Origin: Syntrophales bacterium | GTDB lineage: Bacteria; Desulfobacterota; Syntrophia; Syntrophales; PHBD01 | Reading direction: 5' to 3' | Length of the DNA stretch: 64,000 nucleotides | Assembly (NCBI GenBank): GCA_963668175.1 | Contig: OY764159.1 | Span: forward strand, 1,280,001 to 1,344,000 | Shown: piece after piece, positions 34,775-40,436 of the stretch | How positions within the stretch are numbered: position 1 is the stretch's first letter | Layout: every line of letters begins with the position of its first letter | Translations under genes and position numbers: made by a program | The notes under the pieces: generated by a model | The model's input: the letters and a program-made list of their open reading frames with translations, nothing else | The model's database searches: none | What the model was told of the DNA's origin: nothing

Positions 34775-35305
34775 TTACACCAGTTTCTTCAATTCCTGCA
34801 AGAAGACGTCGTATGTCTTTTGATCGAAGAGCACGAACCGGATGGTCTTGATGTCGCCGTGTTCCTTCAGGTAATCAACGGCCGTCTTCAGGGCGATGTG
34901 TGCCGCTTCGTCCAGTGGGTAGCCGTAGGCGCCGGTGCTGATAGAAGGGAAGGCGACACTTTTGAGCCCCCGGGCGGATGCCAGCTTCAGGCTTTCCCGG
35001 TAGGCGCTTTTCAGAAGTGTCGCTTCGCCGGCCGTGCCGCCGCGGTAGATCGGTCCGACCGTGTGGATGACGAAGCCGGCCTTGAGGTTGCCGCCGGTGG
35101 TAATGACGGCCTGCCCGGTGGGGCAATAGCCGATCTGCCGGCAGGCGGCCATGATGGCTGGTCCCCCGGCCCTGTGAATGGCGCCGTCCACGCCGCCGCC
35201 GCCGCGAAGGCCTTCATTGGCCGCGTTGACGATGGCGTCCGTCTCTTCCTGCGTGATATCCCCGACAACGAGGGAAAGGGTCCCTCCGGCAATTCCGATG
35301 TCCAT
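34775..35305 (-). CDS. Macro-domain O-acetyl-ADP-ribose deacetylase (YmdB-like)
   Basis: GDIT, NAAN, GGGGVDGAIH, HTVGP and SISTGAYGYP motifs. Confidence 0.93.
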   Translation of the reverse strand: MDIGIAGGTLSLVVGDITQEETDAIVNAANEGLRGGGGVDGAIHRAGGPAIMAACRQIGYCPTGQAVITTGGNLKAGFVIHTVGPIYRGGTAGEATLLKSAYRESLKLASARGLKSVAFPSISTGAYGYPLDEAAHIALKTAVDYLKEHGDIKTIRFVLFDQKTYDVFLQELKKLV

Positions 35306-35354: not shown

Positions 35355-36938
35355 TTATGCGTCTTCCGCCACGGGGATGCCGTCCCCATAGACGAGCATG
35401 CGATACGTCTTTTCGATGCGGTCCCAGTTCTCTTCCCGGTCCATCGACCAGTACCGGCCGATCACCGAGACGACCCGGCCCAGTTTCATCTCGGCGCATT
35501 TCTTCTCGATCTCCCGGATATAAATGGCGCCGCTTTCCGGCTGCTCCCCCCTCCTGCCCAGCATGGCGTGAATGAAGAGTTCCTCGACGCCTTCCCGTTT
35601 CGCCATGTCCATCAGGGCGAAGAGATGGCGGATGGAACCGTGGGAGCTGAAGAAAGAGACGATGCCCATGAGATGGAGGGCTTTTCCCGATCTTTTGGCT
35701 TTGTTCATGGCGTAGAGGAAGGCCTCGTTCCGGAAAAAAGATCCGTCGGCGATGGCCCGGTCGATCTGTACCCGGTCCGAATAGATTCTCCTGCCGGCAC
35801 CGATGTGGAGGTGTCCGGCTTCCGAGTTGCCCACCGTTCCCGGAGGCAGGCCGACCGCTTCGCCCGATGCGGCAAGCTTGGCTGCCGGATGCGTTTGATA
35901 GAACCGGTCGAAATTCGGCGTCCCGGCCTCGGCGATGAGATTGCCCTCGGCCGCTTCGTTGATGCCCCATCCATCCAGGAGCAGGACAAGAATCCGGGGT
36001 GCGGTCAACTCCGCTGCCGTGCCTTCGATAAGGGATGTGCCCGTCATGGCGGCGGGTCTGGGAAGTCCGAGGAGATGCAGGACCGTAGGCGCGACGTCCG
36101 TCAGCTCCCCGTTGCCGCGGAGGGAAGCGGTGCAGTGCGGGTGGATGAGAATGAACGGCACGGGGCTGTCCGTATGGCCCGTATCGACCACCCCGTCGGG
36201 AAACAGCCAACGCTCGGCAGTGCCGTGGTCGGCCGTGACGATGGCCGTCAGGCCGGCCTCTTCCGCCTCCGCGACGATCCGTCCCGCCTGCCTGTCGACG
36301 GCCTCGACGGCCCGGATGACGGCTCCTTTGTTCTCAATGTGGCCTACGACGTCCACATTCGGGAGATTGGCGAAGATAAATCCGCATTCGGGATCGTGGA
36401 TCTTCGCAATGACGGCGTCGGCGATGGCCTCGACGGACATCTCCGGGGCCTCGTCGAAAAGGGCGACGTCCTTCCTGGTCGGAACGACAATCCGCTCTTC
36501 CCCCGGGAGGTTTTCCTGTTTCTTGCCGTTGAGAAAGAAACCGACATGGACCGCCTTTTCGGCTTCCGTTATCTTGACCTGCTTCATGCCATGCGCCGCC
36601 AGGACGTCGCAAAGGGTCTCCCCGATGACGTCTTCCTGGGGAAAGGCCACACGGACGTTCAAGCCCTTCCTGTATTCGATCATGGTGGCGAAGGCGCCCG
36701 GCAGGTCCTTATCGACGGGAAATTCATCGAAATCCGGGCCGGTAAGGCTCTCTGTCAGTTCGATCTCCCGTTCCCCGCGTATGTTGTAGAAGATGACGGA
36801 ATCGCCCCTGCTGATTCTGCCCGCCGGTGATCCCTCCCGCGTCGTCAGCACATGCGGTTCGAGGGTTTCGTCTTCCTTGCCGTTCAGATAGGCCGTTTTT
36901 ACGGCCCGGGACAAGGGGTAAGGATCTGAAGACGGCAT
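35355..36938 (-). CDS. gpmI: Cofactor-independent phosphoglycerate mutase homolog, circularly permuted
   Basis: Main GpmI motifs recognisable but in permuted order: NVDVVGH, TADHG and HT come before LLDGWG and GNSEAGH. Confidence 0.85.
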   Translation of the reverse strand: MPSSDPYPLSRAVKTAYLNGKEDETLEPHVLTTREGSPAGRISRGDSVIFYNIRGEREIELTESLTGPDFDEFPVDKDLPGAFATMIEYRKGLNVRVAFPQEDVIGETLCDVLAAHGMKQVKITEAEKAVHVGFFLNGKKQENLPGEERIVVPTRKDVALFDEAPEMSVEAIADAVIAKIHDPECGFIFANLPNVDVVGHIENKGAVIRAVEAVDRQAGRIVAEAEEAGLTAIVTADHGTAERWLFPDGVVDTGHTDSPVPFILIHPHCTASLRGNGELTDVAPTVLHLLGLPRPAAMTGTSLIEGTAAELTAPRILVLLLDGWGINEAAEGNLIAEAGTPNFDRFYQTHPAAKLAASGEAVGLPPGTVGNSEAGHLHIGAGRRIYSDRVQIDRAIADGSFFRNEAFLYAMNKAKRSGKALHLMGIVSFFSSHGSIRHLFALMDMAKREGVEELFIHAMLGRRGEQPESGAIYIREIEKKCAEMKLGRVVSVIGRYWSMDREENWDRIEKTYRMLVYGDGIPVAEDA

Positions 36939-37142
36939 GGGTATCTCCTTTGCTTCGTATGAGAGTATGTTCCCGATCTGTATGGCCGGGGACGTAAGAC
37001 CATTTTTCTAACCAAATTGGCGGTGGCTGTAAAGAGAAACTTTCAGCGCAGGGCGGCATTCGCTGGCTTTTCAGTTGAAAACACGGCCTTTACATGTTAG
37101 ACGGTAAGGTTAGAAATTGTTTCGCAAAGGCCTCCGGGAGCG

Positions 37143-37553
37143 ATGCCCGAGAGGCCGGAATGTCTGGACAAGAGCGTGACGCTGGAAGCTAAAAAGACGC
37201 CGGAAAACGTCCTGCAGGAGGAACTCCTCAAAGAGAGGGCGGAAGTCCTCTGCCGTGCCGGAGAACGTCTGGCCGAGGCCCTGGAGAAGGTCCATGCGGC
37301 GGGAAAACGGATTGAGGACCTGCTGAGGGATCTCGATCGGGCGGCTGAGGAACGGGGTTCTCGGGCGAAGAAGGATGCCCTGGATGCCGTGAACCGGGAG
37401 ATCAGGGCCTATAACACGGCCCGGGACCATGCCAAGCTCCGCTACTACTATATGATCGTGACCAGGGAGGCCCTCGGTATGCGCCGCCACCACTGGGTGG
37501 ACGAGTTTTACCGGATACCCCCCAAGAAAAAACTGCTGCGGGAAGAAAGATGA
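37143..37553 (+). CDS. Hypothetical helical protein
   Basis: GGGAG RBS; overlaps pcm start (ATGA). Confidence 0.7.
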
Positions 37554-39287: not shown

Positions 39288-40436
39288 ATGTCGTATTCGT
39301 ATGAACAGGGGCCCATCAGGCCGCCCAGCGAAGCCAAAAGTCTCCTGATCCGGGCCACCAGGAATTGTCCGTGGAACAAATGCGCCTTTTGCCATACCTA
39401 CCGGGGGACGAAATTCGAGCTGAGAAGCATCGAGGAAATCAAGAAGGACATCGACAAGGCCCGCGAGATCGCCGAGGCGATCAAAGCCCTGTCCTGGAAA
39501 ATAGGGGCCGGCGGCCGGGTGACGGATGCCGTGATTACCGCCATCTACGACGGGGACGACTTCTACGACGACGGCTACAAATCCGTCGGGGCCTGGCTCT
39601 ATTTCGGCGGCGAGTCGGTCTTCCTCCAGGACGCCAATACGATCATCATGAAGACGCCCGATCTGGTCGAGGTTCTCACGTATATTCGGGAACAGTTTCC
39701 GCAGGTCACGCGGATCACGTCCTACGGCCGGTCCCACACCGCCGCCAGGAAATCGGTAGAGGATTTCAAGGCCTTGAAGGCCGCCGGGCTCTCCCGCATC
39801 CATATCGGCATGGAGAGCGGATACGATCCCGTCCTCGAATTCATCCGGAAGGGTGTGACCGCCGCCGACCATATCGAGGGCGGCCGGAGGATCGTCGCCT
39901 CGGGTCTGTCCCTGAGCGAGTATATCATCCCCGGCCTCGGGGGCACACGCTGGACGAAGGAGCACGCCGTCGAAACGGCCCGCGTGATCAACGCCATCAA
40001 CCCCCGGTATGTCCGGCTGCGTTCCCTTCACGCCGTCCGGGGCTCGAAGCTGCACGAGATGATGGTGAACGGGGAATTCGAACCGCTTCCCGACGAGGAC
40101 GTGCTGCGCGAAATCAGGCTGTTCATCGAAAACCTCGACGGCATTACCACGACCATCGTCAGCGACCACATCCTGAACCTTCTGGAAGAACTGGAAGGGG
40201 AACTCCCCGGGGCCAAACCGCGCCTTCTCGCCACGATCGACCGCTTCTTCGCCATGCCGGATAAGGAACGGCTGATTTTCCGCCTGGGCAGGCGCAAGGG
40301 CATCTACCGCCGCCTCGACGACCTAAAAGACAGGTTCACGTACGGCCGGCTGGAGGCTGTCGTCGACCAGTATGCCGCCGGCGACGCCGGCCAGTTGGAC
40401 CGTGACCTGGCCCGGATCATGAACGGGTATATTTGA
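39288..40436 (+). CDS. Radical SAM protein
   Basis: RPPSEA and CPWNKCAFC motifs; GMESG. Confidence 0.9.
   Translation: MSYSYEQGPIRPPSEAKSLLIRATRNCPWNKCAFCHTYRGTKFELRSIEEIKKDIDKAREIAEAIKALSWKIGAGGRVTDAVITAIYDGDDFYDDGYKSVGAWLYFGGESVFLQDANTIIMKTPDLVEVLTYIREQFPQVTRITSYGRSHTAARKSVEDFKALKAAGLSRIHIGMESGYDPVLEFIRKGVTAADHIEGGRRIVASGLSLSEYIIPGLGGTRWTKEHAVETARVINAINPRYVRLRSLHAVRGSKLHEMMVNGEFEPLPDEDVLREIRLFIENLDGITTTIVSDHILNLLEELEGELPGAKPRLLATIDRFFAMPDKERLIFRLGRRKGIYRRLDDLKDRFTYGRLEAVVDQYAAGDAGQLDRDLARIMNGYI

Follow-up and report, generated by a model that had tools for sequence, protein, structure and literature searches.

The question raised by this locus is whether a gene resembling that of a phosphoglycerate mutase encodes a bacterial GpmI whose two halves have exchanged places and, if so, whether such a protein still does the work of that enzyme. 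The gene lies on the minus strand of the window, by which we mean the whole 64,000-nucleotide stretch of Syntrophales bacterium DNA that was analysed, and its open reading frame runs from 36938 to 35355 and specifies 527 amino acids with no internal stops. The features to which we refer are as follows (window coordinates, strand, description and basis).

35355..36938, minus: circularly permuted GpmI-family gene, 527 aa (ORF, profile matches, alignment)
36945..36950, minus: Shine-Dalgarno sequence AAGGAG, 6 nt 5' of the ATG (sequence)
36027..36905, minus: residues 12-304, canonical C-terminal half, 1EJJ 219-509 (alignment; invariance in homologs)
35994..36026, minus: residues 305-315, variable linker between the old C- and N-termini (alignment, model)
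35376..35993, minus: residues 316-521, canonical N-terminal part, 1EJJ 6-211, with D322, S372, H433, R463, R495 and R501 (alignment)
35823..35825, minus: codon of Ser372, equivalent to catalytic Ser62 (alignment; invariant in 121/121)
35544..35558, minus: residues 461-465, GRRGE replacing canonical DGRD(T/V) (alignment, clade comparison)
34775..35305, minus: macro-domain gene (O-acetyl-ADP-ribose deacetylase family), 49 nt 3' of the permuted gene (context only)

Circular permutation of GpmI

Against PDB 1EJJ (511 aa), the solved G. stearothermophilus iPGM that served as our reference for residue equivalences, the protein aligned in two blocks whose order is swapped: residues 12-304 matched 219-509 (E 1.4e-56) and residues 316-521 matched 6-211 (E 1.7e-61), so that the old termini are separated by the 11 residues between the aligned blocks. 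Two stretches were likewise matched in each of 11 PDB sequences. The cut corresponds to about residue 212-218 of canonical GpmI, and the Pfam profile of the transferase domain, iPGM_N, is broken at about position 129 of 217, its positions 1-129 falling at query residues 392-520. Residues 12-304 carry K128, the remainder of the transferase domain (R54, R57) and, from the phosphatase domain, the part that binds metal (D196, H200, D237, H238, H255). Summed over the two swapped stretches, neither of which passes alone, the TIGR01307 score is 473.4 bits against a cut-off of 330.65, and PF01676, the metalloenzyme domain of the alkaline phosphatase superfamily, scores 186 bits. The scores for ApgM TIGR00306 (32.7 bits, cut-off 320) and phosphopentomutase PRK12383 (37.1 bits, cut-off 254) fell far below their thresholds.

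A natural circular permutation is expected to have swapped blocks that together approximate the whole parent, a single conserved frame under selection, and a short linker that the fold can accommodate. All of these were found here, the fold being a predicted one, and on sequence comparison we consider it confirmed that the product of 35355..36938 is a natural circular permutation of bacterial GpmI. The preliminary description, made from the letters of the window, had proposed the same rearrangement, and its particulars hold: the motifs that it quoted all occur in the translation in the order given, the linker EGTAAELTAP that it placed at about 35997-36026 comprises residues 305-314 (36026-35997), both new ends are located within the transferase domain, and the ribosome-binding site that it assigned to the gene is the AAGGAG at 36950-36945.

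Canonical iPGM is described as a phosphatase domain and a transferase domain linked by two hinges (PMC5382265); in the permuted chain it is the transferase domain that is interrupted, the phosphatase domain having become continuous. The modelling and superposition called for in the preliminary description gave a confident result, with an AlphaFold2 model from a 116-sequence alignment having a pLDDT of 90.5 and a pTM of 0.86, and a pLDDT of 84-95 over residues 301-320, that is, across the linker. As sequential aligners follow one block only, the superposition (VIA-align) covers residues 7-306, which include parts of both domains and fit S. aureus iPGM 4NWJ with an rmsd of 2.3 Å over 292 residues (Z 22.2), while residues 316-521 were placed by sequence alignment. 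Z values against alkaline phosphatases and sulfatases were 8-10. The permuted protein is thus predicted by the model to have a GpmI-like two-domain, hinged fold. The distance from the TGxSL to the DGWG motif, which spans the junction of the old termini, is 15-27 residues in 225 of 241 proteins (those in which both motifs were found). Two permuted genes elsewhere (L100:3978-5702 and L104:3762-5765) have a linker that is longer by about 50 residues.

Distribution, selection and gene neighbourhood

The possibility that such an order of blocks arose by misassembly, or that the gene is dead, has to be considered at the outset, and in its favor the only public contigs that cross the whole gene come from one sample, which is possibly the source of the window; contigs from two runs of that sample span the gene without difference, whereas those of X5 and X6 fail to cross the junction. 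However, the best 120 homologs listed, which include a protein of Syntrophus aciditrophicus SB, all align with the query collinearly and in a single piece over 97-100% of its length, at 64-92% identity. A second search, begun from a 48%-identical member, returned 120 more, of which two are named Anaerolineae and one Armatimonadetes, and all 241 near-length proteins examined (the query counted) are permuted at the same place. We retained 80 of 118 GTDB loci with the permuted gene; these are mostly from Syntrophales, Syntrophaceae, Smithellaceae or unclassified delta proteobacteria, and include Syntrophus buswellii DM-2 and one Anaerolineales record. The gene is found in cultured Syntrophus as well. 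Nor does the gene appear dead, since its median dN/dS is 0.164 (0.084-0.258) for 37 close, non-independent pairs among 76 genes, and it is therefore under purifying selection. We give an artefact practically no credence, in keeping with the preliminary description, which had argued against one and had suggested a search for the same permutation in other genomes.

Among genomes of the window's class the permuted gene is present in 79 of 151 (in five of the 79 it is broken at contig ends), and it is found at full length in 16 of 386 genomes from other orders of the same phylum and in 3 of 300 further genomes from the phylum of the Anaerolineales record. For each of the 25 plasmid records listed, of 46, the match is broken into two pieces (about 40% identity), so the listed records include none that is collinear with the query.

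The surroundings of the gene are conserved within one lineage. Of 99 loci, the macro-domain gene lies 3' of the permuted gene in 72, and pcm and nlpD are divergent from it in 77 each, an arrangement of the Syntrophales-type loci. The macro-domain neighbor was found in none of 13 loci from other Desulfobacterota families and is absent from the Anaerolineales locus. In other lineages the neighbors vary (aroQ, PHP, histidine and HAD phosphatases, transporters), and a scan of 75 neighbor ORFs across 80 metagenome loci revealed no shared partner gene. As the neighbors differ between lineages they do not point to a substrate, and we rejected deduction of a function from them. Two other genes recur near the permuted gene: one upstream of pcm (window 37143-37553), present in 71/99 loci, encodes a conserved protein of 136 aa with no NCBIfam match, and another (window 39288-40436), near the permuted gene in 47/99 loci, encodes a radical-SAM protein of no named family.

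Active site, co-occurring mutases and function

Nine residues are given as substrate contacts in the G. stearothermophilus enzyme, S62, H123, R153, D154, R185, R191, R261, R264 and K336 (PMC3886921). Based on the 1EJJ alignment, eight of the nine are kept in the permuted protein (as S372, H433, R463, R495, R501, R54, R57 and K128), each being invariant in the 50 clade members compared; the ninth, D154, is replaced by Gly464. The metal ligands and nucleophile of the canonical enzyme, which we take to be D12, S62, D403, H407, D444, H445 and H462, have counterparts in D322, S372, D196, H200, D237, H238 and H255, and these too are each present in 50/50 members. Asp154 is the proton shuttle in the canonical mechanism. 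It is Asp in all 27 canonical sequences and Gly in all 50 clade members, and in the same 50 the adjoining position is Glu (Glu465), so that the GRRGE segment, found in 240 of 241 near-length permuted proteins, combines the Gly with a new invariant Arg462 and Glu465. Further positions newly fixed in the clade lie in SFFSSHG, RGERE, EKA(V/I)H and DHGT. The three motif changes pointed out in the preliminary description (LDGRD to LGRRG, VHSH to SHGS and ETEKYAH to EAEKAVH) are all present. Its suggestion that specificity is altered has gained support from the clade-wide loss of Asp154 and from the finding, described below, that recognized mutases are not replaced; the altered specificity itself is still deduced.

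The genome of the window has no other GpmI, a point which the preliminary description had asked to be checked, and no GpmA, but two ApgM-type genes in it, PRK04135 and a hom-linked PRK04200, score above their cut-offs. Across the 151 genomes of the class, which are kin and so give non-independent co-occurrence counts, canonical-order GpmI is found in at least 59 among the matches listed (57 over the cut-off, two partial), PRK04135 ApgM in 57 and GpmA in 33. With GpmI again counted among the matches listed, exactly one of the three is present in 131 of the 151, compared with 68 expected if they were independent, and GpmI and PRK04135 never occur together. On the same count, one of the three is held by 74 of 79 carriers of the permuted gene and 66 of 72 non-carriers or, by genus, by 30 of 32 carrier and 20 of 21 non-carrier genera. 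Carriers belonging to four further families and to a second phylum hold a recognized mutase in 19/20 cases. The occupant of the housekeeping slot would be expected to exclude other mutases, which the permuted gene does not do (74/79 and 19/20 carriers have another), and since its carriers nearly always hold another mutase it is likely not the housekeeping mutase.

None of the three mutases was found in five of the 79 carriers, one genus being represented among the five by both of its genomes (88 and 94% complete). The only ApgM type in these five is PRK04200, as it is in three of five non-carriers checked, and we therefore discounted the idea that another ApgM serves them as the mutase. PRK04200 is present in 144/151 class genomes, and genomes that have it still need one of the three mutases. 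That it takes no part in the exclusion seen among the true mutases agrees with its proposed non-mutase role. In one locus (L006:895-2112; G000:C1:2848660-2849853) a PRK04200/TIGR02535 ApgM-like gene overlaps the end of the homoserine dehydrogenase gene.

The loss of one substrate residue, together with the presence of an ordinary mutase in the same cells, makes a different job likely. Our leading explanation, which we put forward tentatively from the analysis as a whole, is that the permuted protein may be a specialized paralog, a two-metal mutase or transferase acting through phospho-Ser372, that would use some small phosphorylated acid instead of, or in addition to, 2-/3-phosphoglycerate, with Glu465 substituting for Asp154. 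By analogy with the canonical mechanism, two metal ions would activate Ser372, the transferase domain would capture the substrate, after which the domains would close, and phosphate would pass from the substrate to Ser372 and from there to an acceptor hydroxyl. With Gly464 the hydroxyl site would be roomier, and the part of Asp154 would fall to the invariant Glu465, in a shifted position.

Two other functions have to be weighed against this one. The protein could be an ordinary 2-PG/3-PG mutase isozyme in which the permutation is neutral and Glu465 fully replaces Asp154, kept as a second mutase for another metal, condition or direction. Several observations are consistent with this and speak against a changed job: the whole protein, at 473 bits, exceeds the equivalog cut-off of 331 bits for TIGR01307, all metal ligands and eight of nine substrate residues are retained, five carriers lack another recognized mutase, and genomes holding two mutases are known (PMC2964296). 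Canonical GpmI is also rarer in carriers (23/79) than in non-carriers (36/72) among the matches listed, a difference that is driven by three genera and is what partial redundancy would lead one to expect. Nevertheless, the three recognized mutases are mutually exclusive and the permuted gene is kept alongside each of them, none of the 27 canonical sequences departs from Asp154, and the clade has many newly fixed positions of its own in the pocket, so that we regard an isozyme as rather unlikely. Less probable again, in our estimation, is a phosphatase, in which the acceptor hydroxyl would, without Asp154, be neither held nor activated and water would hydrolyze phospho-Ser372; candidate substrates would be 2,3-bisphosphoglycerate, 2-phosphoglycolate or phosphoserine. 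iPGM is reported to be capable of phosphatase activity too (PMC3693508), PHP, histidine phosphatase, HAD and alkaline phosphatase genes adjoin the permuted gene in several unrelated loci, and the segment 461-465 has lost two Asp and gained one Arg, which would suit a more negative substrate. The conservation of the whole transferase cage argues the other way, a plain hydrolase having less need of it, and the invariant Glu465 could be a base. SerB was over its cut-off in none of the 151 class genomes, which would leave room for such an activity, but it is missing from carriers and non-carriers alike; there is thus no complementary pattern, and we rejected replacement of the phosphoserine phosphatase.

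We return to the specialized paralog as the preferred reading. Because its altered specificity is deduced from sequence and genome content, the name phosphoglycerate mutase should be taken, for the permuted protein, as a family label only. For the multi-phylum permuted branch of GpmI as a whole, we think it on balance probable that the alkaline phosphatase superfamily has gained in it a new enzyme, one with a substrate of its own, whose living relatives preserve the steps DGRD, DGRS and GRRGE. If so, the label would conceal a phosphotransfer reaction that has gone unrecognized in anaerobic bacteria, syntrophic ones among them. Hundreds of genomes of syntrophic bacteria carry the permuted gene labeled as phosphoglycerate mutase or alkaline phosphatase, and if it has another job, metabolic reconstructions of the carriers are wrong at this point and the reaction is still to be found. 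A cultured carrier exists in Syntrophus aciditrophicus SB.

Evolutionary history and known relatives

For phylogenetic analysis we aligned each half on its own and then concatenated the two in the canonical order of columns. The main-clade tree, the 50-member site comparison and the AU sets were made without near-duplicate rows, and a 71-row tree included 36 of 124 canonical representatives. The main permuted group forms one clade inside bacterial GpmI (SH-aLRT 99-100), and each half alone yields the same clade, so the permuted protein is not a chimera and we ruled out a chimeric origin. The clade has two branches, GRRGE, which includes the window protein, and DGRS (P0242, L130, L131, P0251 and others), with one cluster of the latter having a Candidatus Desulfofervidus auxilii member. 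In a library of 50% clusters, 16 of the 140 proteins with both halves are full permuted proteins; four of these (P0262, P0273, P0281 and P0351) retain the canonical DGRD, as does P0249.

The existence of permuted relatives with a canonical site suggests that permutation came before the change of the pocket. The simplest reading, which we infer from the sequences, is that the protein was permuted with its canonical site intact, that Asp154 was then lost, and that the GRRGE pocket would have come last. A single origin of all permuted proteins was not rejected (support 88; AU p 0.85 and 0.64, 38 rows); the 71-row tree, against a single origin, sets permuted proteins apart. A second, independent permutation is possible for the long proteins P0249 (986 aa) and P0351 (5027 aa), in which permuted iPGM domains with canonical motifs lie within very long chains. 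We found no tandem-duplicated intermediate among nine hits of 924-2635 aa, which is weak evidence. Two further long proteins were seen: P0242 (935 aa), in which a DGRS-grade permuted iPGM is followed in a single frame by a C-terminal ApgM domain, and P0246 (2349 aa, named Candidatus Omnitrophica), which has an embedded iPGM domain in canonical order.

As to the substrate of the DGRS grade, the best lead is a run of genes at L212:7868-14653 (G605:C1) consisting of two HAD genes, a DGRS-grade permuted iPGM, a uridine-kinase/PRK-like kinase, a PRK04135 ApgM, a second kinase, an RpiR regulator and an ABC transporter. A LacI cluster that includes UxaE, two Zn dehydrogenases, a creatininase-family protein and a TIM-barrel protein is divergent from this run, and the same gene order occurs in L131/G673. 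The run resembles an inositol or sugar-acid catabolic cluster.

Natural permutations in enzyme families of central metabolism are rare test cases for the evolution of fold topology, and the graded relatives make the order of events testable. We found no description of the permuted family in the open literature, subscription journals being mostly outside the scope of the search. A survey of bacterial mutases counts one bacterial iPGM and three archaeal ones in S. aciditrophicus, and the word stem "permut" does not occur in its main text (PMC2964296). The S. aciditrophicus SB protein (ABC77850.1 / Q2LUU2 / WP_202943548.1) is 68% identical to ours and has the same permuted order, and its entries, which are titled "phosphoglycerate mutase" or "alkaline phosphatase family protein", say nothing of that order.

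Among recognized enzymes, the archaeal-type ApgM (TIGR00306; PRK04135, PRK04200) is found in the same genomes and shares the metal site of the alkaline phosphatase superfamily, but it is unpermuted and has another transferase domain, and the permuted protein scores only 33 bits against its cut-off of 320. Within that group, the hom-linked PRK04200 (TIGR02535, "proposed homoserine kinase") offers a precedent for an iPGM relative with another proposed job. The closest known system is bacterial GpmI/GpmM (TIGR01307; PF06415 and PF01676; PDB 1EJJ, 1O98, 2IFY and 4NWJ), which is about 40% identical to both halves of the permuted protein. The two have in common the predicted two-domain fold, the metal ligands, the catalytic Ser and eight of nine substrate residues. 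Unlike GpmI, the permuted protein has its halves swapped, has lost Asp154, has remodeled SDGGVHS, RxDR, EKYAH and DHGN motifs, and stands outside the housekeeping mutase slot.
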